From the NCBI GenBank assembly GCA_040218735.1, contig JAVJQW010000057.1, positions 500,005 through 564,004 of the forward strand: 64,000 nucleotides of DNA, given 5' to 3'. Below are positions 1,187-14,792 of the stretch, piece by piece. The stretch's first letter is position 1, and every line of letters starts with the position of its first letter. The translations under genes and the position numbers were made by a program. The notes under the pieces are model-generated. The model saw nothing but the letters and a program-made list of their open reading frames with translations, was not told the origin of the DNA and ran no database searches. Source of the DNA: Deltaproteobacteria bacterium (GTDB lineage: Bacteria > Myxococcota > Kuafuiibacteriia > Kuafuiibacteriales > Kuafuiibacteriaceae).

Positions 1187-3130
1187 CTACACCCCCGTGT
1201 GGTCGCTCTCCATCCAGCGACGTTTCTCGAACCCGAAGTAACGAATGCCCTGCAGCAGCGGGAACAGCCACAGGATGAAGAACACGATCATGGCGTGTGA
1301 GCCGATGAAGACGTCGGAGCGCACCGCGAGCGTGAGCGCCGTGGGCTCGCCGCGACCGGTCACCCACTCCGGCTTCACCTCGGCGACGTACGTGCCGCCC
1401 GGGACGCCGCCCACGTAGACCGTTCGCGCATGCCGACCGGACGCGTAGGTTTGGCCGCCGACGTACCCCGAGTAACTCGCGACGTGCACGCCGAACGGGA
1501 TGCGTTTGTTCGACGTCTGCTCGATCAACGTGCCTTCACTGAACACGAAGCCGTTCTTCACGTCCGACGCCATCGTGATCTCGAGCGCGCTCTTGCCGCT
1601 GACCTCGAAGGCCTTGCTCCGCAGCAGCTCGCCCTTTACGCGCCGCGGCTTCTCGTTGCCGCCGCGCGTCTTGGTCGGGAGCTTCCACTGCTCCTGCAGG
1701 ACGACCTGGTTGTCGGAGGTCATCGACATCAGCATCGCCAGCAGCAGCAACAGCCCCGAGAAGACGAGGCCGAAGCGGAACGAAGCCTTCAGCGAAGGCG
1801 CCGCGGGGTTCGGTTGGTTCGGCGCGATGCCGGCGGCGCGCGCGAGCGGGCGCTTCAACCCGAACGCCTCCTCGACGACCTTCTTGTCGAGGTACTCACC
1901 AGCGGACCACGTCACCTCTTCGGGCGTGCGCTCCTCCGACAGGATGTGCGGCGGCGCGACGTAGTCACTCGTGCCGACGCGATCCCCGACCTGCACCTTC
2001 CAGTAGAACTCGCCGCGCAGCGCATCGACGACGGCGGTCGACGAAGAGAAGTGGCGGTACGTGCGATCGTCGAAGCGCGCCTGACGCCCGCGCTCCTGCA
2101 CCGCCCCCGCCGACACCGGGCGCACGAAGGTCCAGTGACCGTCGTTGTCGATCAACCAGTAGTAACCGCCGCGCCGGTCCTCGCGGAGCAGGTACTCCTG
2201 CCACGCGTACTTGATCCCGTCGTACGTGACGCTGCGTTCGAGCAGCCCGTAGATCGTGTAGCGCCCGTGCGAGAACTTGCCGGTGCTCCCCAGCGGGATC
2301 TGCGGATCCTGCCCGTGCTGGCGCGCGGCCGACATCAGGTACAGCTCGCTGCCCTTCGAACAGTCGAGGAGCGAGTCACACGAGCCGCACGTCACGCGCT
2401 GGGCTTCGTCGGGCGCGCGCAGCTCGACGGCAGCGCCACAGTTCGGGCAGTTCATCCCGACGCCGGCGGCGGCCTCGGTGGGCTGGTAGTCGCGAAGGAC
2501 GCTCTTGTCGAAGACGTCGTCGTACTTCAGCTCGGCGCCGAGGAAGATCGACTCCGCCTCACGCGGCGCGGTGCCGTAGTCGATCGTTCCGAAGGTCCCG
2601 TTGGGCCCTTCGACGTCGCAGTAGAAGAACTGGGCGCCCGGCTCGACCGCGAACGGGAGCTCGCCCTCCGCCGACACGAACTTCGCGCGGCGACGCTCGA
2701 CGACGGTCAGCTCGTGTTTGCCGAACTTGAAGTGACTGCCGACGCGCGCCGCGGGGTAGCTCGGCAAGCCGGCTTGCGCCCCGCCGAACGTGAGGTAGAC
2801 CTTCCCCTGAGCTTCGGCGAGCCAGCCCCAACGGCCGTCGTCGAAGGCGGCGTACCACTCGTTCCAGGGACCTGCCCCATAGTTCAGCTGAACGCGCCCG
2901 ACGAGTGTGAAGCCCTTGCTGTGGTAGCGCCCGGAGGTCCCGAGCGCGAGCGGGGAGCCGATATCCGCCAGCGGGGCGACCTGCCCGAGGATCTCGAGCT
3001 CGGTGATGTCGTCGCCCACGCGAGCGACGGCGCTCGAGCAGTAGCTACAGACGGACAGGAGCGATGCTCCCGCCCGGAACTCGACCTGCCCACCGCAGTT
3101 GGGACAGTTGACGACGCGGGCGGCCTTCAC
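1187..3130 (-). CDS. DUF4178 domain protein (two Zn-ribbon plus DUF4178 repeats, C-terminal TMs)
   Basis: CPNCG...CxxC twice, W-x-E-W/Y motifs (WNEWY, WQEYLL), GELPF and GEFYW, C-terminal FEKRRWMESD. Confidence 0.85.
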   Translation of the reverse strand: MKAARVVNCPNCGGQVEFRAGASLLSVCSYCSSAVARVGDDITELEILGQVAPLADIGSPLALGTSGRYHSKGFTLVGRVQLNYGAGPWNEWYAAFDDGRWGWLAEAQGKVYLTFGGAQAGLPSYPAARVGSHFKFGKHELTVVERRRAKFVSAEGELPFAVEPGAQFFYCDVEGPNGTFGTIDYGTAPREAESIFLGAELKYDDVFDKSVLRDYQPTEAAAGVGMNCPNCGAAVELRAPDEAQRVTCGSCDSLLDCSKGSELYLMSAARQHGQDPQIPLGSTGKFSHGRYTIYGLLERSVTYDGIKYAWQEYLLREDRRGGYYWLIDNDGHWTFVRPVSAGAVQERGRQARFDDRTYRHFSSSTAVVDALRGEFYWKVQVGDRVGTSDYVAPPHILSEERTPEEVTWSAGEYLDKKVVEEAFGLKRPLARAAGIAPNQPNPAAPSLKASFRFGLVFSGLLLLLAMLMSMTSDNQVVLQEQWKLPTKTRGGNEKPRRVKGELLRSKAFEVSGKSALEITMASDVKNGFVFSEGTLIEQTSNKRIPFGVHVASYSGYVGGQTYASGRHARTVYVGGVPGGTYVAEVKPEWVTGRGEPTALTLAVRSDVFIGSHAMIVFFILWLFPLLQGIRYFGFEKRRWMESDHTGV

Positions 3131-3190
3131 GCCGGTTTCGGGTTACCACCCGCCTGCTTTCGCGGCAACCGATGTATCCTCTCGGCAGCG

Positions 3191-5668
3191 ATGGGGGAGC
3201 CGGTCTTCGCCGGGGCGAGTCGAGTCGAACGCGTCACGGTGTTCTCCGAACATGCGCACGTCACGCGGATCGTCGAGATCGACGTTCCGGCGGGAGAGAC
3301 GACGTACGCGCTCGACGATCTCCCGACGTCGGTCGATCCCGCGACGCTGCGGGTCACGACGTCCGGCGGAGAGATCGTACGCGTCGAGCTGGGGCTCCTC
3401 CCCGATACACACCCCGAGGGCGCCGACTCCACCGCCGATCTCGACGTCGCGATCGAGCGGCTGACCGCGCGCCTCTACGATCTCACCGGGCGCGCCGAAG
3501 GGCTCGCCGCCGAGCTCGAGCTGATCGACGCCGTCGTCCCCGACAAAGCGCGCGCGCCTCAGGGCGCGCTCGCGCCGGAGCGGTTCCTGGAGGGGCTCGA
3601 TGCGCTCGTCGAGCGCCGCCGCGAGACGCTCTACCAGCTCCGTATGGCCGACTACGAGCGGCAGCTCACGGCGGACGAGCTCGACCAGCGCAAGAGTCAG
3701 CGCCGCGACCGCGACAACCCTTCGGCCACGCTCCGCGAGCGCACGCGAACGATGGTCACGGTGCGAAGCGATGAAGCCGTCACGGCTACGCTCGAGCTGA
3801 CCTACGCGATGGGGTGGGCGACGTGGCGTCCGTTCTACGATCTCCGTCTCACACGCGGGCTCCCGACCATCGAGGTCACGCGCTACGCGGAGATCTGGCA
3901 GGAGACCGGGGAGGACTGGACCGACACCGCCGTCCGTACGTCGACGGCCGTCCTCGAAGAGGGCCTCGCGATTCAGCGCGTGCGTCCGTGGGTCCTCGAA
4001 CATCCGACGCCGTCGTCCGGGAAGAACAGACCCCTCCCGAGGAACGCTTCGGTCTTGGAGCCCGCGCTCCTACCGCCACCGATGCCGCAGTCGAGCCCCG
4101 GTTCGAACCCCGGACGGAGTCGGTCGTCGCCGGACTTCCTCGACCACGAAGCGGCGACCGGCGACCTCTCGATCTCCGCGGAGACGCTCGCGCAGTCGCC
4201 GTTCGCTCAGCCGTTGCTCGGGCCCGGCTCGGATCCGACGAGCCACCCGCGCCACGGGAGCAACCCGCGCCCGGACTCGGGGCCCCGCGCACGGCAGTTC
4301 CGTGAGGAGGGGATCTTCTCCGAGATCACCGCGGTGTCCGCACAGGCGGAGACGGGGCCGACGGCGACGCAGCTCGTCGAAGCGCAGCGCACGGGCCGCC
4401 CGTCGCCGCGCGAGGGGACGACGAACATCGGCGTGGTGCAGACACCTTCGCCGGATCATCCGGACTGGGACCGCTTCGAGGCGGAGGCTCCGCCGCGCGA
4501 GAGCAGCGGGGGATTCGACTTCGAGCTGACGGCGAACGAGCGCGCGTCCTTGCCTTCGGGCCACGAGCAGCACCGTCTGTTGTTGGGGCGCGCGAACCTT
4601 CCGTGTGAAGTGCGGTACCTGCTCCGGCCCGCGATCACCGGGCACGCGTTTGCGCGGCTGACGATCACCAACTCGTCGCGGGTGCCCCTCCTCCCCGGGA
4701 ACGCGGCGGTGTTCGACAACGATCGTTACTCCGGCGCGGTGACGCTCGACGCGGCGCCGCCGAAGGCGCGGGTGTCGCTCGACCTCGGCGCGCAGCCACG
4801 CGTGGTCGCGCGCCGAAAGAGCCGAACGTCGATGCGGACGGAAGGGCTCATCACGCGCGAGGACGAGAACGCGAACGAAGTGCTGCTCGACACCGACTTC
4901 CGCCTCTTCTACTGGCTGCTCAACGGCCATGTCGTCGGCGCGCCCGAGCAGCCTCCGCCGCCCGACCCGGCCGCCGTGAAGATGGTCCGTGCCTTCGTCC
5001 AGGCCGGTGCCGATCTTCGCTACAGTCGTGCGGGTCTGATCTCTGGCGATCTCGCGCGCCAGTCGGGGAGCGAAGCCGTCCAGCGAACGCTCGCCGAGTG
5101 CGACGCGTACGTGACGCGGCACTACAAGAGCAGCAGCCGAGACAAGCAGTGGAAATACGTGAAGAGACCACCGAACGTGAAGTCGGTGCTCACCAAGGAG
5201 CTCGCTGGCGATGCACTCGCCAAGAAGACGGTCGCGCTGGTCATGGTGTCGGCGACGGCGACGCTGAAGAGCAAGAGGAACGCCTACCGACCGGAGAACG
5301 CGGCGGACGCCAATCCGAATACCGCTTGGGTGGAGGGCAGCCCTTGGCACGGGCGATGCGAGGGTATCGACCTTCGCGTCGACCAGGCCGCCAAGGCGGC
5401 GAAGCTCATGATCCTGAATGGCTACACGAAGTCCGAGAAGACGTGGAAAGAGAACTCGCGCATCAAGCGCGCGAAGGTCTTCGTGAACGGCGATGTCGTG
5501 GCGTCGGTCGAACTGTTGGACACCCTGGAGCCGCAGACCTTCGCGCTCGGTCGTGATCTCTCGGCCAAGGACGTCATCAAATTTCGGATCGTCGAGGTCT
5601 TCCCGGGGAGCAAGTACAAGGACACGGCGATCAGCGAGCTGCGCCTCGTCGCGAGCGAAGCGGGGTAG
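3191..5668 (+). CDS. DUF4140/DUF4139 (MuiA-like) protein, apparently fused to an unrelated C-terminus ending in a discoidin/NADase-type glycan-binding domain
   Basis: Start MGEPVFAGASRVERVTVFSEHAHVTR; ATWRPFYDLR, WQETGEDW and PLLPGNAAVFD motifs; C-terminus YRPENAADANPNTAWVEG...NGYTKS...NSRIK...YKDTAISEL. Confidence 0.7.
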   Translation: MGEPVFAGASRVERVTVFSEHAHVTRIVEIDVPAGETTYALDDLPTSVDPATLRVTTSGGEIVRVELGLLPDTHPEGADSTADLDVAIERLTARLYDLTGRAEGLAAELELIDAVVPDKARAPQGALAPERFLEGLDALVERRRETLYQLRMADYERQLTADELDQRKSQRRDRDNPSATLRERTRTMVTVRSDEAVTATLELTYAMGWATWRPFYDLRLTRGLPTIEVTRYAEIWQETGEDWTDTAVRTSTAVLEEGLAIQRVRPWVLEHPTPSSGKNRPLPRNASVLEPALLPPPMPQSSPGSNPGRSRSSPDFLDHEAATGDLSISAETLAQSPFAQPLLGPGSDPTSHPRHGSNPRPDSGPRARQFREEGIFSEITAVSAQAETGPTATQLVEAQRTGRPSPREGTTNIGVVQTPSPDHPDWDRFEAEAPPRESSGGFDFELTANERASLPSGHEQHRLLLGRANLPCEVRYLLRPAITGHAFARLTITNSSRVPLLPGNAAVFDNDRYSGAVTLDAAPPKARVSLDLGAQPRVVARRKSRTSMRTEGLITREDENANEVLLDTDFRLFYWLLNGHVVGAPEQPPPPDPAAVKMVRAFVQAGADLRYSRAGLISGDLARQSGSEAVQRTLAECDAYVTRHYKSSSRDKQWKYVKRPPNVKSVLTKELAGDALAKKTVALVMVSATATLKSKRNAYRPENAADANPNTAWVEGSPWHGRCEGIDLRVDQAAKAAKLMILNGYTKSEKTWKENSRIKRAKVFVNGDVVASVELLDTLEPQTFALGRDLSAKDVIKFRIVEVFPGSKYKDTAISELRLVASEAG

Positions 5669-5850: not shown

Positions 5851-5932
5851 GCCCTCGCGCGCGTTCGGCGGCGCGGCGTGCTCATGCATTGGAATCTGGT
5901 TGTCGAACGAGCACGGCGTTTCCTGTGTGCCG

Positions 5933-5961
5933 GTAAGGTTCGCGCACCCTCGAAACGAATA
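5933..5961 (+). promoter_or_regulatory. Putative ECF-sigma promoter GTAAGG-N17-CGAATA
   Basis: Same hexamers and spacing as the motif at 14892-14920; about 60 nt upstream of the lipoprotein gene at 6023. Confidence 0.55.
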
Positions 5962-6022
5962 CCGATACGAGGCCTCGGTCGTTCCGGGCCGCTCGTACAA
6001 CTCATTTTCAGGGGAGAGATCG

Positions 6023-6502
6023 ATGTCGAATTCAACGAAGCGCGGCGGGCTGTGGTCCGTCGCTGTCCTGGGGTTCATCGCGGCGTGTGGATCGGTCGAC
6101 GAGCGGCCGGCGTCGGAGGAGGCGCCCCAGACCGCGACGACGGAGCAGGGCATCCTCGGCTCCAACCTCTGCAAGGACGTCGACCTCATCTTCACCAACT
6201 CGCGCGAGCGGGCGAGCGGCAACGTCGCCATTCGCGTCCGTCGCGTGAAGTTCTCCGAGAACGCGAACGGCCCGTGGCGCTCCGAGGACTTCAGTAACCG
6301 GGTCGTCGGTTACGGCGACACGGTGACGGTCGACAACCAAGACCTCGAGAACTCGTACAACGATGATCTCGAGCACTGGCGCATCTACTACAACGTCCTG
6401 CAGCCCAACGGGACTTGGGGCTCCGAGGTGTATCAGCAGGTCACGCACTTCGGCGACTCCACCTGCCGGAACTACCGAGGTTACTCGCTCGTCGTGAACT
6501 AA
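6023..6502 (+). CDS. Secreted lipoprotein of unknown function
   Basis: GGAGAG RBS then ATG; lipobox IAAC; beta-rich mature domain with two Cys. Confidence 0.8.
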   Translation: MSNSTKRGGLWSVAVLGFIAACGSVDERPASEEAPQTATTEQGILGSNLCKDVDLIFTNSRERASGNVAIRVRRVKFSENANGPWRSEDFSNRVVGYGDTVTVDNQDLENSYNDDLEHWRIYYNVLQPNGTWGSEVYQQVTHFGDSTCRNYRGYSLVVN

Positions 6503-6506
6503 CGAC

Positions 6507-7223
6507 TCAGGGTCGCAGCCGAAGCGTGAAGGAACGCGCTTGCCAGCCGTCGCCGGTCTCCTCGCCCAGCACCGCTTGCGGCCTGGGCGCGGCGCCGGGG
6601 CGGGAGACGACGGCGACGAGGCGGACCTCGCCCGTTTGGCCGCGGGCGAGCACACCGGCTTCGCCGACCCACCGAGCCGTGCCCCGCGGCGACACCTCCG
6701 CAACGACCGAGGACGAGACCGGCGCGCCGTCGACGACGACGAACAGCGACGCCCCGACCGGGCCGGACACCTCGACCATCGGTCGCATGACGATCGCGAT
6801 CTCGGTGGGGCCGTCGAGGATCGTGGGAGTCGCCGCGCCGCGCCAGTCCTCGGCGGTCGGCTCATACTCCACCCGGTAGGCCGGCAGCGCGTCGCCGTCG
6901 GGAGGGACCATGAGGAGCAGCACGGCGGCCGCCGCGGCGACGGCGGCGACACCGATCGGCCACGTTCGCGCGCGGCGCAGCGGGCTCGCGGCGTCCAGCG
7001 CGACGCCGACGAGTTTGTCCTCGAAGTCCTTCGAGAGGGGCTCGCACATCTCGAGCGCCGTCCGCAGCGCCGAGTCGTGCACGGCATCTTCGCGCAGCCG
7101 CGCCTCCTCGTCCGCGCTCAGCGTTCCGTGGGCGAGGCGCTCGATCCGTGGATCGAGGTCCGCGTCGAGCGCGCTCATCGCCTGCCCGATCGCGCGGAGG
7201 CCGTCGTCGACGCGGTCAGACAC
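6507..7223 (-). CDS. Putative membrane anti-sigma factor (paralog 1)
   Basis: Overlaps the ECF sigma stop; N-terminal helical domain (RLAHGTLSADEEARL), one TM, beta-rich outer domain; homologous to 11504-12256. Confidence 0.75.
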   Translation of the reverse strand: MSDRVDDGLRAIGQAMSALDADLDPRIERLAHGTLSADEEARLREDAVHDSALRTALEMCEPLSKDFEDKLVGVALDAASPLRRARTWPIGVAAVAAAAAVLLLMVPPDGDALPAYRVEYEPTAEDWRGAATPTILDGPTEIAIVMRPMVEVSGPVGASLFVVVDGAPVSSSVVAEVSPRGTARWVGEAGVLARGQTGEVRLVAVVSRPGAAPRPQAVLGEETGDGWQARSFTLRLRP

Positions 7224-7872
7224 GGCCAGGTCCTTCGGCTGCGAGCTCCGCCTCGAGCTCGCGGACCAGCTTCAGGAGTCGATTGCGCCAGGAGTACAGG
7301 GCGGTCGGTGTCGTCCCCTCCTCCTCGGCGACGAGCTGAATCGGCTGCTCGTCGATGTACAGGCGTTGGAAGTACACACGGCCCCGCGGGCTGAGGCGTT
7401 CTTTCAGGCGCTCGGCGATGAGGGCGAGCAGCTCGCGCGACGCCACGTAGTCCTCGTGGCTGGCCGCCGTGCCGCGCATCTCGTCTAGGCGCTCGTCGAG
7501 CGTCGGGTCCTCGGTCCAGGGGTTGCGCTTGCCGGTCCGCATGATCATGCCGACCTCGCGATCGGCGAGGAGGCCGACGAAGCTCGTGAACGACAGGCCG
7601 CGGCGCTCGTCCCACGCGCGGAGCGCCTTCCCCCGCCGCGAGAACAGCGCGGCAAAGACCTCCTGCACCATGTCTTCGACATCATGGCGCAGGTTGCGAC
7701 CGCGTGCCTGCGCCGCGTGGCGCATCAGCGCTCGCGAGACCCGAACCTGAATGGTCGGGGCGATCCGGGCGACGACGGTGCGCATCGCGTCGGCGTCGCC
7801 GTCCAACGCCGATACGAGCCGCGCGCGCAGCTCCTGTGGACCGAGCCGGTCGAGGTCGATACCCGGGGTCAC
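7216..7872 (-). CDS. ECF RNA polymerase sigma-70 family factor (paralog 1)
   Basis: Region 2 DVEDMVQEVFAALF, WDERRGLSFTSFV; region 4 LSPRGRVYFQRLY...ALYSWRNRL; GTG start with GAGGA RBS chosen by eye. Confidence 0.85.
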   Translation of the reverse strand: MTPGIDLDRLGPQELRARLVSALDGDADAMRTVVARIAPTIQVRVSRALMRHAAQARGRNLRHDVEDMVQEVFAALFSRRGKALRAWDERRGLSFTSFVGLLADREVGMIMRTGKRNPWTEDPTLDERLDEMRGTAASHEDYVASRELLALIAERLKERLSPRGRVYFQRLYIDEQPIQLVAEEEGTTPTALYSWRNRLLKLVRELEAELAAEGPGRV

Positions 7873-7975
7873 GACGTCGTTCCTCGAGACTCCGTAACGT
7901 ATCAACAACCGCCCGTCGCGGCGTCCCCTGTGCAATCCCTCCCGAGCTTTCAGTTCTGTTCGCCAGACGATCAGC

Positions 7976-10729
7976 TCATCGCACGACGACGCGGAAGCTG
8001 GCCCAGTCGACCTCGGGACGGTCGACGGACAGCCGGCTCTGCGCCTCGGCGAGCAGCGTGGGGCCATCCCAGACGCCGCGGCGCCGCTGCGCGGCGTACA
8101 GGGCCGTCACGACCACCCGAGCGTCGACGTCGCGCACCGGGCGGACGGACGCGATCACCCAGCGCGCACCCGCCATCAGGAAGGCCTGCGCCAGGCCGAG
8201 GCCGGACACATCCTTGGCCGCGGAAGTCGCCGCCGTCTCGCAGCCCGATAACACCACGTGGTCCGGCACCGACGACAGCGCGAGGATCTCGGCGACGCCG
8301 AGCAGCTCGACGGACGGGTCGCCGAGATGGCTCTCCCAGCCGTCGAGCCCGGCGTAGTGGGCATGCCCCGCGTAGTGCAGCAGCCGAGCGCGGGGCGATC
8401 GCGTCGCCGCTGCGACGGCGCTGCGCGTGGCTTCCGCACCCGAGAGTCGCCGGACGGACCAACCGCCGTCACTCAACGTGCGCTCGACGTGGGCTGCCTC
8501 CTTCGTCGACGTCCGCAGCTTGACGAACGGATCGATGACGATCGCCTCGGCGCCGCGCGGTGTGTCGGAGGACGTTGGCGACTCGACGTCGGCCGGGTAG
8601 GCGACCGGGCGGGAGGCGACCAAAGGCCGCCCGCGCCACGGCAGCGCGTGGAAGTCGACGCGGTTCAGGACGCCGTTCGGGAGCACGTGAACCCTCGCGT
8701 GCCCGTCGAGCACCGCGTCGAAGGGATCGAGGAGCTGGTGAGCCAGCGCGTCCGCCGTCGAACGTTCGACGTCGATCGGTCCGAGGTGACGCGCGATCGA
8801 TCCGGCCGCGGTCGACGCGAACCCCACCCACCCCTGCTCGACGCGGTGGTAGGTCAGCAGGACCACCCCGCGCGGCGGCGGCTCGAGATCTCGATCGGCG
8901 GGCAAGGAGGCGCCGAGCGCGGTGAGCGCATCGTCGATCTGCACGCGCGTCGCCGCCGACCGCCCCTCGCGGCGTTGGATGCGGCGCCGGATGTCGTCGA
9001 CCGGGAGGTCCCAACCGCGATCGTCGGGTCCGTCGTCGACGTGGATGCGACGGTGCTCGGACAGCGCTTCGTACCAGAGTTGACGCGCCTCTTCGGGCGC
9101 GCCGTCGAGGCGCGCCCTCGCGTTCAGCCCGAGCAGCACACGCCTTCGACTGCGTCGCGCCGTGTCCGCGGCGGCCGCGATCTCGTCCTTCTGGATCAGC
9201 AGCTCGATCAACCGCTGGCTGCCGTCCGCGTGCCGGCCGACGAACCCCTCTCGACCACCACCGAGCGGTGCGCGCAGGCTGAGGCGATCGAGGACACGCT
9301 CGCCTTCGCGATAGACCGCGATGGCTTCCTCGATGCGACCCTGTCCTTCGAGGGCACGGCCTCGCCCGACGAGACCGCGGAGGCGGGTCGTCGCATCGCC
9401 GTACCATCGGCCCAGCAGCTCGAGCCGCGCGTACGCGTGCTCGGCCTGTTCATGGTTCGCCTGGGCGAGGGAAAGATCCGCCTGCAAGATCGATTGCAGC
9501 TTTCGTAGCGGAATCGCGGGCTCGGCGAAGGCCGCGCGCGAACGAACGAGGAGATCGCTCGCCGCCTCCAGATCTCCCGCGAGCAGCTCGACGTATCCGA
9601 GCCGCGCGAGGGCGTTCGAACGATGCCGTGGGTTGTCGCAGCGCTCCTCGTACAGCTCGAGGGCCGCGCGCAACGACGCACGTGCCGGCTCGAGCGTTTG
9701 GGTATCGGACAGCCCGGTGGCCAGCCGGCCCAGGATCACCAGCGCCAGCGCACGCCGGCACGTCGGCTGCGTCGGGGTCTCCTCGGCGAGGCGCGCGTAC
9801 AGATCCGCTGCCTCTTCGAACCGCCCGAGGTCGATGAAGGTCTCGACCTGGAGTTCCGCGGCCGCTCGCCAGACCGCTTCGTCACCCATGCGTTCGGCGT
9901 GTTCGAGTGCACGCGCGCCGTAGCGCAGCGCGCGCCGATAGTCGCTGACGCCGACGGCGGCGTAGGCCCGATAGTAGGCGGCGTCCTCGGCGGCCGCCGG
10001 ATAGACGGACGCGCGCGCGTCGACCTCCGCGAGCGTCATACAAACGCGTGCGTAGTCGCCGCGGTTCCTCAGGATGTACGCCAGAGCGAAGCGGTCGTGC
10101 ATCTCGCCCGATACGGATCCCGCGGCCCGGTGTTGGTCGATGCTCCGGGTCAGCCGAACGACCGCCTCGGCGTGGTCACCGCGATCACGTGCCATTCGTC
10201 CGAGGAGCGCATGGGCCTGCGCACGAACGCCTTCGTCAGGATCCTCGGTGAGCGGCAGGAGGATCGCGGCGGCCGCGGCCCGCTCGCCATCGCTCCTCAG
10301 TCTTCGCGCGGCTTCGAGCGCGGGATGGACCTCGTGCCGCTCGAGCCGGAGCGTCCAGCGTTCGGACGAGCCCTGCGGTCCGATGGCCAACGTCGCCGGG
10401 AGGTCCGACGGAGCAACGGGGAGGGACAGCCGAAGGCCACCGGCGGCGGGCGTCGTGTGAAGATCGCGCGGGCGCCCGTCCAGGCTGACGGGCGGAGCCA
10501 CCGCGCCGCCGAGCCAGATGGTGAGCGTCGCACCTGCGGTCAGGAGGCAGCGACCCTCGACCGTGACTTGGTCGCAGCCCTTGAACAACACGCCCGGCCC
10601 GCCGGTCGACGACGCCACGACGCCCGCCGTCACGTCGGTCGCGCCCGTCAGCCGCTCGTGAGCGAGCCACCCACCGACGAGGCAGAACGCGGCGGCGACG
10701 AGACCCCTCAGAGGCCCTCTGGGAAGCAC
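7976..10729 (-). CDS. TPR-CHAT (caspase-like, clan CD) protease with N-terminal signal/TM segment
   Basis: Ala/Arg-rich TPR-like helices; CHAT motifs VLPNGVLNRVDFHALP, LHYAGHA (His), VVLSGCET (Cys), GLAQAFLMAGARWVIAS, WASF. Confidence 0.9.
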   Translation of the reverse strand: MLPRGPLRGLVAAAFCLVGGWLAHERLTGATDVTAGVVASSTGGPGVLFKGCDQVTVEGRCLLTAGATLTIWLGGAVAPPVSLDGRPRDLHTTPAAGGLRLSLPVAPSDLPATLAIGPQGSSERWTLRLERHEVHPALEAARRLRSDGERAAAAAILLPLTEDPDEGVRAQAHALLGRMARDRGDHAEAVVRLTRSIDQHRAAGSVSGEMHDRFALAYILRNRGDYARVCMTLAEVDARASVYPAAAEDAAYYRAYAAVGVSDYRRALRYGARALEHAERMGDEAVWRAAAELQVETFIDLGRFEEAADLYARLAEETPTQPTCRRALALVILGRLATGLSDTQTLEPARASLRAALELYEERCDNPRHRSNALARLGYVELLAGDLEAASDLLVRSRAAFAEPAIPLRKLQSILQADLSLAQANHEQAEHAYARLELLGRWYGDATTRLRGLVGRGRALEGQGRIEEAIAVYREGERVLDRLSLRAPLGGGREGFVGRHADGSQRLIELLIQKDEIAAAADTARRSRRRVLLGLNARARLDGAPEEARQLWYEALSEHRRIHVDDGPDDRGWDLPVDDIRRRIQRREGRSAATRVQIDDALTALGASLPADRDLEPPPRGVVLLTYHRVEQGWVGFASTAAGSIARHLGPIDVERSTADALAHQLLDPFDAVLDGHARVHVLPNGVLNRVDFHALPWRGRPLVASRPVAYPADVESPTSSDTPRGAEAIVIDPFVKLRTSTKEAAHVERTLSDGGWSVRRLSGAEATRSAVAAATRSPRARLLHYAGHAHYAGLDGWESHLGDPSVELLGVAEILALSSVPDHVVLSGCETAATSAAKDVSGLGLAQAFLMAGARWVIASVRPVRDVDARVVVTALYAAQRRRGVWDGPTLLAEAQSRLSVDRPEVDWASFRVVVR

Positions 10730-11382
10730 TGTTGGTCGTCCGCCTCCATCGAGTACCCCTCACAGATCGGATTCGCCGACGCGTGGTTGTACGTCTGAGC
10801 GAGACAAGCGCAGACGTAGGTCACAATGCAATGGGGGCAGGACCCATAACCATCGAAGAGCTGATTGGCGTGTTCGATGTCGCAGCGGAGGAAGCGATCT
10901 CCGGCGACCACCTTCGCTTTGAATGCGTTCGACTCGAGGATGTGTTCGACGGCTTGCCATCCCTCTTCGCCCAGCGTCGTGAAGAACAAGGCGTGCTCGG
11001 CGACGGCTTCGGGATCCGCGAAATCGTGGAACGTCTGCAAGGGCTGTCCTTCGTCGCCGAGGAGGGTGAGTTCCTCGAGCTCGACGGGCTCACCGATATC
11101 CGAAAAATCCTTCACCATGACGAGGATGTCGAATTCGTCATAGTAGATCGTACAGGAGCCCTCCCCTTCCACCGGAGTTTCACCTTCGTCCCCGTCGTTC
11201 CAATCCTCGAGGCCAAAAGGAGGATTGGACACCGCGTCGTGGTCTTCGTAGTCGTCGGACGGGTCCGACGCCTCGGCACTACTCGCCGACGTGACCTCCG
11301 CCGTCTTTGCTGGCGCGCCGCCGTCGCAAGAGACCACACCCACCACCGTGCACATCGCTACGATTCGTTCGATTCGATTCAT
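10708..11382 (-). CDS. Acidic lipoprotein with Cys-rich C-terminus
   Basis: GAAGGAG upstream of ATG; lipobox-like VVSC; C-terminal CPHC...CAC...C...C; overlaps the CHAT start. Confidence 0.75.
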   Translation of the reverse strand: MNRIERIVAMCTVVGVVSCDGGAPAKTAEVTSASSAEASDPSDDYEDHDAVSNPPFGLEDWNDGDEGETPVEGEGSCTIYYDEFDILVMVKDFSDIGEPVELEELTLLGDEGQPLQTFHDFADPEAVAEHALFFTTLGEEGWQAVEHILESNAFKAKVVAGDRFLRCDIEHANQLFDGYGSCPHCIVTYVCACLAQTYNHASANPICEGYSMEADDQQCFPEGL

Positions 11383-11503
11383 CTCTCTACTCCTTCTGAG
11401 ATCGTGTCACGTCCTCGGTCCGCATTGATAACTATGATGGGAGGACGACACTTCTTGCGCGGCGCCGATCAGGAAAACTCGCCGGGTCGCGACGCTCGTC
11501 AGG

Positions 11504-12256
11504 TCATCGATCGTCGACGACGACGACGACGCGCGCGGCTTCCCAACCGTCCCCGGTCGCACGAGGTGTGCGGGCCGTCAGCCACGCGGCCAGCGCCTCT
11601 TCTCGCGGCGCCTCGCCGGGTCGATGCACGACGAGCACGAGCACCGCTTCGTCGGTTTCGACTTCGACCAGCCGTCCGACCGAACCGACGAATCTCGCGG
11701 CGCCCGTCGGCGAGACCTCGAGTCGACCTTCGACGGGATGTAGCCGACCGTCACGCACCGCATACACACGCGCCTCGACGGTACTCGACACGCGCGTCGC
11801 CGGCCGCAGGACGACTTCGAGTGGCGCATCGGGCGCAAGCCTTCCTGCAGACCGTGCAATCGCGTCCCCGCGGTAGGTGTCATCGCCCACGTGGACCTCG
11901 ACCTCGTACGCGGGCAGCGGCGACGTTCGGAGGACGAAGGGCAGGACGGCCGCCGCGGTCGCCAGGACCGCGACCGCGAGCCACGGTCCGCGAATCACGG
12001 GCGCCCGTATCGGCGAGGGCGCATCGGCGAGGGCGTCCCGCGCGATGTCGTCCAACCGGTCGACGTCCGCGGTGGAGAGCGGCTGGTAGGCGACGAGGCG
12101 ACGAGCGAGCTCCGGATCGCGCTCCGCCTCGCGCTCGAGCTCGAGACGCTCGGCCGCCGAGGACGTCCCATCGGCGAGCGCCTCGAGCCGGGGGTCGACG
12201 TCGTCCTCGGCATCCATCGACGAGGCGATACGGTCAAGGAGGCGATCGTCAGCCAA
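11504..12256 (-). CDS. Putative membrane anti-sigma factor (paralog 2)
   Basis: Overlaps the sigma stop; same architecture and motifs as paralog 1 (LPAY, RG, EVSPxG, RPG, GDGW). Confidence 0.75.
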   Translation of the reverse strand: MADDRLLDRIASSMDAEDDVDPRLEALADGTSSAAERLELEREAERDPELARRLVAYQPLSTADVDRLDDIARDALADAPSPIRAPVIRGPWLAVAVLATAAAVLPFVLRTSPLPAYEVEVHVGDDTYRGDAIARSAGRLAPDAPLEVVLRPATRVSSTVEARVYAVRDGRLHPVEGRLEVSPTGAARFVGSVGRLVEVETDEAVLVLVVHRPGEAPREEALAAWLTARTPRATGDGWEAARVVVVVDDR

Positions 12257-12872
12257 CGCGTTCCTCCTCGTGATCGAGCTCCACCGCGACGTCGGCGACC
12301 ATTCGCCGCAACCTCGAACGCCACACGTAGATGGCCCCCGGCGTGGTACGGGCGCGTTCCGCGATGCGGTCGACCGGCTGCTGCTCGATGTACAGCCATC
12401 GGAAGTACTGCATGCCGAGCGGGCTGAGTCGTTCGCGCAAGCGTTCGGCGAGGACCGCGATCAGGTTCCGTGACTCGAGCCGTGCTTCGACCGCGCGCAG
12501 GTCGGGGACGTCCGCGAACACTTCGTCGTCGGCGAGCGTCGGATCCTCGGTCCACGGGTTGCGCTTCGCGGACCGGAGCAACGACAGGGCTTCCCTCTCG
12601 GCGACGAGACCCACGAAGTTCTCGAACGACAGACCTCGGGCGGGGTCCCAGCTCCTCAGGACGCGAGCGTCGGACGCAAAACACGATGCGAAGACGTCCT
12701 GGACGACGTCCTCCACGACCTGCCGCAGGTCGCGCGCCTGCGCCGCCGGACGCTTCCGCGCGACGATGCCCGCGACGCGCCTGTGGACGATCGGCGCCAT
12801 CGACTCGACGAGACGGCGTCGCATCCCGGCGTCGCCGGCCAGCGCGTCCGCGACCGTCTCGCGGTCCGTCAT
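12249..12872 (-). CDS. ECF RNA polymerase sigma-70 family factor (paralog 2)
   Basis: VEDVVQDVFASCF, WDPARGLSFENFVGL, RNPWTEDPTL shared with paralog 1, AIYVWRSRL. Confidence 0.85.
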   Translation of the reverse strand: MTDRETVADALAGDAGMRRRLVESMAPIVHRRVAGIVARKRPAAQARDLRQVVEDVVQDVFASCFASDARVLRSWDPARGLSFENFVGLVAEREALSLLRSAKRNPWTEDPTLADDEVFADVPDLRAVEARLESRNLIAVLAERLRERLSPLGMQYFRWLYIEQQPVDRIAERARTTPGAIYVWRSRLRRMVADVAVELDHEEERVG

Positions 12873-13004
12873 GCGTCGGGCGGCGTCCGGACGGCGGCGC
12901 GCCTGCGCTCGCACCGGCCGAGACACCGGACGCACCATTGTCGAATCGACCACTCCGAGCTCCTCGGACCGCGCCCCCACGGGGGACATCGGCGCTTGAT
13001 TCGA

Positions 13005-13073: not shown

Positions 13074-14792
13074 TCAACAGGGGCCCAAGACCTCGATCTT
13101 CACGTCGTCGATGCGGAAGTGCGTGCTGTCGCCCGCCGCGACGAACTTGAGCACGCGGAAGTCGCCACCGGTCTGCCAGAAGGCCGCGCCCGTCGCGACC
13201 GGAACGCCGTCGACGGTGAAGTCATAGGTTTCGGCGCTCATATCGAGGACGACCTCGAAATCCTGCCAGACGCCCGCCGCGTAGTTCGGTCCCAGGTTGG
13301 TCGAAGTGCCCGTGTGGTAAATGAGCTGCCCGCCGACGGAATAGGTGATGAGGAAGAAATTCTTGTACGTGTTCGATTGACTCGAGACGTTGAACCCGAA
13401 CTTGTCGGTCTGCTCCGCAACCGAACGCCACGTCACGCGAATCTTCGCCGTCCCGAGGGAGGAACAGCTGGCGGCGAAGGCGTCGATACGCGGCCACGAT
13501 CCCGGGGCCGAAGCGCGATTGAATCGTACGTTCTGCGTAACGTTTCCGCCGTAGCTGGTGTCGACGAGGATGGACTGCGTTGGATCCGACGGGTGCGTCG
13601 CGAACACCCCCAGCGAGTCGCCGACGGGTGCCCCGGCCGGACTCGCGAGCGGGGCCATTCCCACGGTGTCGGCTTCGAAGTCGCTGTTGAAGACCACCGT
13701 TGCGCTCGCGCTCGGCTGCAGCAGTACACTGACGTCATCGTCGAGGAAGTTGGCGACGGCGATGTCCGTAGCGAGGTCGCCATCGAAGTCGCCCTGGGCG
13801 ATCGAGTCCGGAGCGTCACCGACGGCGATTCTCGGCGAAGCGTTGAAGGTCGCGCCCGTACCGATGAAGATCGACAGGTCGTCATCGAAGTTGTTGGCCA
13901 CGACGATGTCGGCAAATCCGTCGTTGTTGATGTCAGCCGCGACCGCGACGTTCGGGTTGTTGCCGACCGGAAACTTGGTTGGGGCCTGGAAGGTTCCGTT
14001 GCCGTTGCCCAGGTGGACGCCGACCTCCGAGTTCGCGTTGTCGAGCGACAGTAGGTCGAGCAGACCATCACCATCGAAGTCGGAGAGGTCGATGGACCGG
14101 TCACCACTGTCGGCCGCTGTGACCGGGGCAGCAAACGTGAGGGGGCCGGTGGCCAGACTGACGGTGATGTCGAAGCGCTCCCGCCACAGCAGGTCGGTCA
14201 GGCCGTCCTGGTCGACGTCTGCGGCGACGAGCACGCGAACGCCATCGATGGTGTTGAACACCGTTGGCGCTCCAAGGGCCCCGGTGCCCAGGTTCGGGTG
14301 GATCTCGATCGCGCCGCTGAGGAGGTTGAGTCCGACCGCGACGTCGAGCGTGCCGTCCTGGTCGAAGTCGGCCAATGCAATCGACGTCGGCATCATCGTC
14401 ACGGCGGTCACCGTGGGGGCACCGAACGCCCCTGCGCCGTTGTTGAGCATGACGCCGAACTGCCTGCCGAAGTTGCTGGCGACGACGGCATCGAGATCCC
14501 CGTCCCCGTCCATGTCGCCGAGCGCGATGGCGGTTGGGTCGTTGAAGACCGCGAAGTGAACGGCGGGCGCCATGTTGCCACTTCCATCCGAGAGCAGGAC
14601 GCTCAAGTCGTTCGTGGCTCGGTTCACGGTGACGAGGTCGATGTCGCCGTCGCCGTCCAGGTCACCGGCCTGCACTTGGTTCGGAGCGCCGCCGACGGGG
14701 AAGTCGACGGGCGGATTCAGCTGGGCCCGAACGGGTTTGGTGGGAATGAGGATGGCCAACGGTAGGGCGGCCATGAGGATGTAATTTCGCAT
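13074..14792 (-). CDS. Secreted FG-GAP/VCBS repeat (beta-propeller) protein with C-terminal beta-sandwich domain
   Basis: Signal peptide; seven GDxDGDGxxD-type repeats. Confidence 0.9.
   Translation of the reverse strand: MRNYILMAALPLAILIPTKPVRAQLNPPVDFPVGGAPNQVQAGDLDGDGDIDLVTVNRATNDLSVLLSDGSGNMAPAVHFAVFNDPTAIALGDMDGDGDLDAVVASNFGRQFGVMLNNGAGAFGAPTVTAVTMMPTSIALADFDQDGTLDVAVGLNLLSGAIEIHPNLGTGALGAPTVFNTIDGVRVLVAADVDQDGLTDLLWRERFDITVSLATGPLTFAAPVTAADSGDRSIDLSDFDGDGLLDLLSLDNANSEVGVHLGNGNGTFQAPTKFPVGNNPNVAVAADINNDGFADIVVANNFDDDLSIFIGTGATFNASPRIAVGDAPDSIAQGDFDGDLATDIAVANFLDDDVSVLLQPSASATVVFNSDFEADTVGMAPLASPAGAPVGDSLGVFATHPSDPTQSILVDTSYGGNVTQNVRFNRASAPGSWPRIDAFAASCSSLGTAKIRVTWRSVAEQTDKFGFNVSSQSNTYKNFFLITYSVGGQLIYHTGTSTNLGPNYAAGVWQDFEVVLDMSAETYDFTVDGVPVATGAAFWQTGGDFRVLKFVAAGDSTHFRIDDVKIEVLGPC

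Follow-up and report, generated by a model that had tools for sequence, protein, structure and literature searches.

A nearly invariant arginine in the periplasmic domain of ECF anti-sigma factors as a candidate cleavage site for neighboring TPR-CHAT proteases

This study concerns a 64,000-nucleotide stretch of DNA (the window) from a Deltaproteobacteria bacterium of the phylum Myxococcota (assembly GCA_040218735.1, contig JAVJQW010000057.1, positions 500,005 to 564,004), whose genome assembly of 70 contigs amounts to 11.6 Mb. Six minus-strand genes at 6507-12989 of the window encode two pairs of extracytoplasmic function (ECF) sigma factor and anti-sigma factor, an exported TPR-CHAT protein and a lipoprotein-like protein. 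As read from sequences and structural models, these genes form a split version of the DdvA/DdvS switch of Myxococcus xanthus, because the CHAT protein keeps a predicted His-Cys dyad and is closest to DdvA. We tentatively propose, as a plausible reading that still falls somewhat short of probable, that the periplasmic TPR-CHAT protein serves the ECF anti-sigma factors as a trans-acting site-1 protease and cuts them at an invariant Arg|Gly/Ser bond within the first loop of their immunoglobulin-like (Ig-like) domain. The arginine is a good candidate for a sigma-activating cut because it is nearly invariant in a large family that is encoded beside exported caspase-like proteases.

The proteins of the window were checked against Pfam and NCBIfam, by BLASTP, with a six-frame peptide search, and with AlphaFold models and Foldseek. 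Anti-sigma factor 1 (6507..7223, minus strand, as for all genes of this locus; 238 residues) consists, according to its open reading frame (ORF) and its AlphaFold model, of a helical N-terminal domain predicted to bind sigma, one transmembrane (TM) helix and an Ig-like periplasmic domain, and has no match in Pfam or NCBIfam. Its TM helix, TWPIGVAAVAAAAAVLLLMVP, lies at 6903..6965 (residues 87-107 by eye; the model helix spans 92-104), and its juxtamembrane motif, LPAYRVEYEPTAEDWRG, at 6837-6887 (residues 113-129), with Arg128-Gly129 at 6837-6842. Anti-sigma factor 2 (11504..12256; 250 residues) is a paralogue of anti-sigma 1 and carries the motif LPAYEVEVHVGDDTYRG at 11867-11917 (residues 114-130), with Arg129-Gly130 at 11867-11872. 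The arginine of each motif stands about 21 residues past the hydrophobic TM helix, and the tetrapeptide LPAY occurs twice in the window by six-frame search, both times inside these two peptides. The initial annotation had singled out both peptides, and both are present on the minus strand, its coordinates having been off by 1-3 bases at most. It had also called the two proteins otherwise divergent, which is mistaken: their BLASTP alignment covers the entire length of both at 38% identity (E 8e-23), so they are full-length homologues. A motif common to these two proteins alone would thus be expected from common descent, and what is beyond chance, as judged from alignments, is the pattern of arginine conservation across the whole family.

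In both pairs the stop codon of the sigma gene overlaps the start of the anti-sigma gene, an arrangement of ORF coordinates that points to translational coupling. ECF-type sigma factor 1 (7216..8067; start codon uncertain) matches TIGR02937 at E 1.5e-8, below the curated cut-off, and Sigma70_r2 at E 0.005; ECF-type sigma factor 2 (12249..12989) matches TIGR02937 at E 1.3e-9, likewise below the curated cut-off, and Sigma70_r2 at E 5e-4. The two sigma factors are 47% identical. The N-terminal part of the anti-sigma proteins finds its best PDB matches, weak ones at E 0.07-1.2, in the anti-sigma domains of RslA, ChrR and the N-terminus of DdvA. Both window proteins lack a zf-HC2 match in Pfam; this domain is found in 3 of the 8 further genome paralogues scanned and in 11/144 family members. 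The coupling to sigma genes, the weak N-terminal matches and the three zf-HC2 paralogues together bear out the earlier assignment of these proteins as anti-sigma factors.

With anti-sigma 1 as the founding sequence of the family alignments, a profile run against 1.84 billion cluster representatives returned 4423 matches at E<=1e-3, 2149 at 1e-10 and 240 at 1e-30, and the column counts given below refer to the best 150 of the 4423. A word-based homologue search with the single protein had yielded a near-identical copy as its sole match. A first search of the genome gave 10 anti-sigma paralogues, in whose alignment Pro114, Tyr116, Arg128, Pro148, Gly181 and Arg184 are invariant besides the start. 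In the larger alignment, whose mean column identity is 22%, the Arg128 column (P1 of the putative cut) is Arg in 149/150, and P1' is Gly in 84, Ser in 49 and Ala in 10, together 143/150. P2 is hydrophobic or aromatic in 110/150, P5 acidic in 83/150 and P6 Gly in 120/150, and the positions beyond P1' are variable. The distance from the tyrosine to the arginine is 12 residues in 118/148 sequences and 11-13 in 147/148, and 18-30 residues separate the arginine from the next conserved strand. These column counts define what is, on the aligned sequences, the family signature: LPxY-x5-G-G-(D/E)-x-x-hydrophobic-R-(G/S/A). Among the acidic columns of the periplasmic domain in the same alignment, none is conserved above about 57%. 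An arginine that is invariant next to no comparably conserved acidic partner, together with a small P1' and a hydrophobic P2, argues for a protease site. Arg|Gly is also the bond at which MALT1 typically cuts its substrates, and a small residue at P1' is favored by caspases.

The initial annotation had described the motif as a separase-like (D/E)xxR followed by glycine. The arginine of that description stands nearly throughout the family, and so does the following residue if it is taken as small, but glycine alone accounts for just over half of the sequences. As a family motif, (D/E)xxR fails: P4 is acidic in 12/150, the commonest residues there being Arg (33), Ala (32), Gln (26) and Ser (22), and P6 is mostly glycine. 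The likeness to separase at P4 is therefore a coincidence, and the (D/E)xxR spacing is, as far as the alignment goes, particular to the two window proteins and a few others.

Among genome members, the arginine is kept in all 14 strong ones (14/14) as Arg-Gly or Arg-Ser. Two weak members depart from this: in one (contig C56:2301-3053, minus strand) His-Met-Gly replaces hydrophobic-Arg-Gly, and another aligns in the N-terminal domain only. The family consists of anti-sigma factors that cross the membrane once and carry an Ig-like periplasmic domain for which Pfam has no model, and the C-terminal halves of 144 family members gave no Pfam family at E<=0.01. DUF4384, a lead taken from 33% of one Atlas cluster, was dropped after 0/144 members matched it in Pfam. 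The Atlas clusters of the family belong mostly to Myxococcota and Acidobacteriota. A literature search found no paper on the motif or the anti-sigma family; it covered the supplements of the ECF classification in part, and a mention there is possible.

The AlphaFold model of anti-sigma 1, built with 144 sequences, has a mean predicted local distance difference test score (pLDDT) of 88 and places helices at 2-85, the TM helix at 92-104 and a beta sandwich at 116-236. The first strand of the sandwich covers residues 116-122 and is followed by a stretch without regular structure, residues 123-134, that contains Arg128-Gly129. Mean pLDDT is 94 over residues 111-120, falls to 67 over 121-130, and is at least 95 in each ten-residue block from 141 on; in this model, the arginine loop is the least confidently placed loop of the Ig-like domain. 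A loop of low model confidence, the fixed spacing from the tyrosine to the arginine and the variable spacing from the arginine to the next strand are consistent with a site presented to a protease. Foldseek searches with the anti-sigma model returned generic Ig-like folds only, none at E<=1e-3.

Gene linkage ties the family to CHAT proteins. Hidden Markov models made from the genome's own paralogues and run over all of its ORFs found 16 anti-sigma-family ORFs at E<=1e-8, of which 14/16 have a TPR-CHAT ORF no more than 12 kb away and make up 13 loci; the two members without a nearby TPR-CHAT gene are on contigs C14 and C58 (388 kb). A survey of the phylum found family matches at E<=1e-8 in 27/151 sampled genomes. 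From about 45 full-length matches outside the genome of the window, 20 loci were taken: a CHAT gene lies within 9 kb in 16/20, and an S8 subtilase gene accompanies it in 14 of these 16, while 4/20 carry neither, one of the four ending at a contig edge. This association, in the genome itself and among its relatives, supports the CHAT protein as the partner of the anti-sigma factors.

A second protease is frequent in these loci. In 9/13 genome loci an S8 subtilase is also encoded, as a lipoprotein of 640-780 residues (Pfam Peptidase_S8, E 4e-11 to 4e-7), and since 6/6 paralogues keep its Asp, His, Asn and Ser it is apparently active. The window module stands apart with its two sigma/anti-sigma pairs, a single CHAT gene and no subtilase; nine other modules have one pair and a subtilase. 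Both window anti-sigma factors keep Arg-Gly at this subtilase-free locus, which favors the CHAT protein as the enzyme. Some further observations were made on the modules. The 13 modules amount to a large paralogous expansion in one genome (for example loci L011, L012, L014-L018, L019-L021 and L024), and they come in two gene orders, sigma-antisigma-CHAT-S8 and CHAT-antisigma(zf-HC2)-S8-sigma. At L015:6432-7484 (plus strand), a 350-residue trypsin-like lipoprotein (Pfam Trypsin_2, E 1e-14) occupies the position that S8 has in other modules.

The TPR-CHAT gene of the window (7976..10729) encodes 917 residues with a Pfam CHAT match at E 1.6e-24 and matches to TPR families. Its AlphaFold model (pLDDT 86; predicted TM-score 0.83) comprises a signal-anchor helix (7-28), a beta-sandwich (47-131), a TPR/helical region (136-604) and the CHAT domain (622-917). 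The closest structures in Foldseek are DdvA (8rw5 and 8rot_A, E about 2e-13), followed by human separase and then Csx29 of craspase, with TM-scores of 0.23-0.36, which are low, as is expected of flexible multidomain proteins. A profile of the CHAT domain run against the PDB finds DdvA 8rot_B at E 4.4e-12, Csx29 at 4e-5 and separase at 2e-3; phmmer with the whole CHAT protein found no match in the PDB, and profiles alone reached Csx29 and DdvA. The predicted catalytic residues are His789 (8363..8365, within LLHYAGHAH) and Cys830 (8240..8242, within VLSGCETA), and these two, His785 and Gly788 are invariant in 26/26 CHAT homologues, with Asp733, Glu744 and Asp867 nearly so.

All 13 CHAT paralogues of the genome (13/13) begin with a signal anchor or lipobox, and a conserved Gly-Cys...Cys pair follows the N-terminal signal in 10/13, including that of the window; the pair and the signals fit a periplasmic location. 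The export signal would put the protein in the same compartment as the motif, and with the intact dyad it suggests a competent enzyme in the right place. The initial annotation's view of the neighbor as a CHAT protein is supported by its TPR-CHAT architecture, intact dyad and export signal, and the gene linkage to CHAT is strong. As a separate observation, the membrane-proximal beta-sandwich of residues 47-131 (window 10337-10591), which bears the Gly-Cys...Cys pair, could pair with the Ig-like domain of the anti-sigma factors. Most clan CD families prefer Arg at P1, and their specificity is set by the region after strand 1 (helix alpha-1) and by loops L4 and L5, through residues such as Asp365, Asp462 and Glu500 of MALT1 or Asp163 of gingipain R (PMC4357240). 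By analogy, Asp733/Glu744 and Asp867 may be placed at the P1-specificity sites of clan CD. Complex prediction with TPR-CHAT 48-917 and anti-sigma 110-238 gave scores of 0.29, 0.34 and 0.02, against a mark of 0.32.

On the proposed mechanism, the two ECF sigma/anti-sigma pairs would be served by a single TPR-CHAT (caspase-like) protease that is tethered to the membrane on the periplasmic side. Each anti-sigma factor would retain its sigma factor in the cytoplasm and would offer, outside the membrane, the arginine loop behind the first strand (LPxY) of its Ig-like domain. A signal sensed by the TPR part would activate CHAT, which would cut after the invariant arginine (Arg128|Gly129 and Arg129|Gly130). 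The cut would strip off the bulky domain and leave a stub of about 21 residues, and an RseP-type site-2 protease would then process this stub and set the sigma factor free. Several M50 site-2 protease genes are present in the genome, which agrees with the last step. Possible precedents for the first are the cutting by HetF at Y-R|S, the Arg specificity found in clan CD and the cleavage proposed for DdvA.

A number of points weigh against this mechanism. Cleavage is a proposal only, in this family as in DdvA, where mutants of the catalytic dyad had no effect without signal (PMC11506125). CHAT specificities vary, and Csx29 cuts after Met or Leu (quoted in PMC11506125). The subtilases of 9/13 genome modules and 14/20 loci of relatives could be the enzyme that cuts, and an invariant arginine followed by a small residue can equally mark a tight turn or a docking contact. 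Exposure of the arginine is inferred only from pLDDT and from the way in which hydrophobic and polar columns alternate. Even after a cut at this bond, release would not be automatic, because the first strand stays hydrogen-bonded in the sandwich. Finally, Asp733, Glu744 and Asp867 also occur in CHAT paralogues that are unlinked to anti-sigma factors, and the divergent CHAT protein (C56:4682-7177, plus strand) encoded beside the His-Met-Gly member keeps the dyad as well as the candidate S1 acids Asp, Glu and Asp. Because the acids occur without anti-sigma linkage and beside a Met member, covariation between CHAT acids and the arginine lends the mechanism no support.

The alternative that survives best is that the arginine loop stays intact and binds, as a docking element or pseudosubstrate, to the active site of CHAT or the groove of the TPR part, like securin on separase or the arginine loop of the gingipain prodomain. 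Signaling would then run through release or a change of conformation, or else the anti-sigma domain would act as an inhibitor of the protease. The invariance of the arginine, the position of the loop and the gene linkage fit this arrangement too, and there are models for it: the prodomain of gingipain RgpB puts an inhibitory arginine into the S1 pocket (PMC4357240), and securin occupies the separase site (quoted in PMC11506125). The small P1' and hydrophobic P2 are substrate-like, though, and HetF does cut at Y-R|S, so that we regard docking without cleavage as unlikely.

Alternatively, the S8 subtilase lipoprotein may be the site-1 protease, with TPR-CHAT as an upstream sensor or activator and the arginine loop as a subtilase site or as a feature irrelevant to CHAT. 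The subtilase S1P is the site-1 protease for SREBP, and the frequency of S8 genes in the modules of the genome and its relatives, their Pfam matches and their intact catalytic residues all suit such a role. On the other hand, the window module has no S8 gene and yet keeps Arg-Gly in both anti-sigma factors; 4/13 genome modules lack it, one of them having the trypsin-like lipoprotein in its place; and S8 never occurs without CHAT among the 20 loci of relatives. Moreover, because the positions after the arginine are variable, an S1P-like RxxL pattern is not found among the best 150 sequences. Cutting by the subtilase is thus quite improbable in our judgment.

It is just as improbable that LPxY...GG...R(G/S) is a structural signature and nothing else, the first hairpin or turn of an Ig-like fold whose arginine serves folding or membrane-proximal packing. 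Such a role would account for the fixed spacing around the Gly-Gly turn, with its frequent glycine at P6, and would place the arginine alongside other invariant fold positions (Pro148, Gly181 and Arg184) in what is a generic Ig-like sandwich without a specific structural relative. However, the loop is the least confident part of a very confident domain, the alternation of residues in the alignment suggests that the arginine sits on a face with variable polar neighbors, and no acidic partner is comparably conserved. Recognition of (D/E)xxR by CHAT in the manner of separase, suggested by the acidic P4 of both window paralogues (EDWR and DTYR) and by the high rank of separase in the structural search with the CHAT protein, is very improbable, since the family rarely has an acid at P4, has glycine at P6 where the consensus needs an acid, and carries its own acid at P5.

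Other features of the window lie in and around the locus. At 6507-12989, one TPR-CHAT gene stands between the two sigma/anti-sigma pairs, and there is no S8 subtilase. Between anti-sigma 2 and the CHAT gene, an ORF at 10708-11382 (minus strand) encodes an acidic, lipoprotein-like product of 224 residues that has no match in Pfam or NCBIfam and, in BLASTP against all ORFs of the genome, returns itself alone. A second small lipoprotein-like ORF (5900-6502, plus strand) likewise finds nothing in Pfam or NCBIfam and lacks paralogues in the genome. The gene immediately upstream of the module (13074-14792, minus strand) encodes a secreted FG-GAP/VCBS-repeat protein of 572 residues (FG-GAP_3, E 3e-38), a possible target or an unrelated neighbor. 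Farther away, a DUF4178 and zinc-ribbon protein (1187-3130, minus strand) overlaps an opposite-strand open frame of 1412 residues (1430-5668, plus strand); the first part of this frame resembles a shadow of the opposite gene, and its C-terminal part alone is likely real.

The proposed cleavage matters beyond this locus. Work on DdvA (2024) put forward a periplasmic CHAT domain as the initiator of the proteolysis that frees an ECF sigma factor, but it could not demonstrate cleavage, for want of a known signal and because the enzyme and its substrate belong to the same chain. In the family described here protease and substrate are separate proteins, which permits a direct test of CHAT-driven regulated intramembrane proteolysis. 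If the proposal is right, caspase-like proteases of the bacterial envelope act as site-1 proteases through a nearly invariant, exposed-looking Arg-Gly bond, and the result would extend to a large family with thousands of representatives, 13 modules in this genome and members in 27 of the 151 genomes sampled in the phylum. The same set of gene types surrounds the ECF54 sigma factors, for which no anti-sigma factor was recognised.

The closest known system is DdvA-DdvS of M. xanthus, in which DdvA is an anti-sigma factor with a fused periplasmic TPR-CHAT (PDB 8rot, 8rw5 and 8rlz), RseP degrades DdvA only once TPR-CHAT is removed, and cutting of the juxtamembrane linker by CHAT, followed by RseP, is presented as proposed rather than demonstrated (PMC11506125). 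Both systems join an ECF sigma factor to a single-pass anti-sigma factor and have a periplasmic TPR-CHAT with a His-Cys dyad, and DdvA is the best Foldseek match (E 2e-13) and the best profile match (E 4.4e-12) of the window CHAT protein. They differ in that the TPR-CHAT of the window is encoded by a gene of its own and carries a signal anchor, instead of forming the C-terminal part of the anti-sigma factor; in that the window anti-sigma factors carry an Ig-like domain with an arginine loop and no N-terminal zf-HC2 (CHCC/ZAS) match; and in that one CHAT protein serves two sigma/anti-sigma pairs. A search for longer, CHAT-fused relatives of the anti-sigma family found none, which is weak evidence.

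HetF provides the nearest precedent for the bond. Its CHAT domain cuts PatU3 between R117 and S118, in the local sequence N-Y-R|S; R117A, R117D and R117H abolish the cleavage and S118A weakens it (PMC9457339). This site, where the cut follows Arg and the flanking residues are Tyr (P2) and Ser (P1'), resembles the hydrophobic-Arg-(Gly/Ser/Ala) of the family and the W-R-G and Y-R-G of the window, and by sequence the HetF site appears a better fit to the family motif than the separase consensus does. Unlike the window protein, HetF has its CHAT domain in the cytoplasm and its TPR in the periplasm, and PatU3 is an inhibitor of cell division and differentiation, not an anti-sigma factor. Separase also combines TPR-like repeats with a CHAT-type clan CD protease that has Arg at P1 of its sites, and it matches the window CHAT structurally. 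Its consensus, (S/D/E)xExxR (quoted in PMC11506125), has acids at P4 and P6 that are not kept in the anti-sigma family; the enzyme is eukaryotic and cytoplasmic or nuclear. As to an unstructured context for the site, the window motif lies in a loop of pLDDT 67 between strands of a folded domain.

In craspase, the type III-E CRISPR system, the TPR-CHAT protein Csx29 frees the ECF sigma factor RpoE by cutting Csx30, and Csx29 matches the window CHAT protein both structurally and by profile. In contrast to the window module, in which no CRISPR genes were seen, that system is cytoplasmic and RNA-guided. For the actinobacterial ECF54 group, Casas-Pastor 2021 and PMC8999054 describe a beta-sandwich protein at position +1, a subtilase and a TPR-CHAT protein, and no anti-sigma factor is recognised in these descriptions. 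The likeness to the modules studied here lies in the gene cast (sigma factor, +1 beta-sandwich protein of the carboxypeptidase-regulatory-like type, subtilase and TPR-CHAT), whereas ECF54 belongs to Actinobacteria and 0/144 family members match the Pfam family of the +1 protein (E<=0.01). Of the two proteases, the window has CHAT and lacks the subtilase, and nine other modules of its genome have both.

In canonical regulated intramembrane proteolysis of anti-sigma factors (RseA/DegS/RseP), a periplasmic site-1 cut is followed by an M50 site-2 protease. The site-1 enzyme proposed here would be unlike DegS in being a clan CD cysteine protease and not a serine protease, and it would cut inside the first loop of a folded domain. 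In common with a canonical substrate, the window anti-sigma factors have a single TM helix and a bulky extracytoplasmic domain, and the genome encodes M50 proteases.

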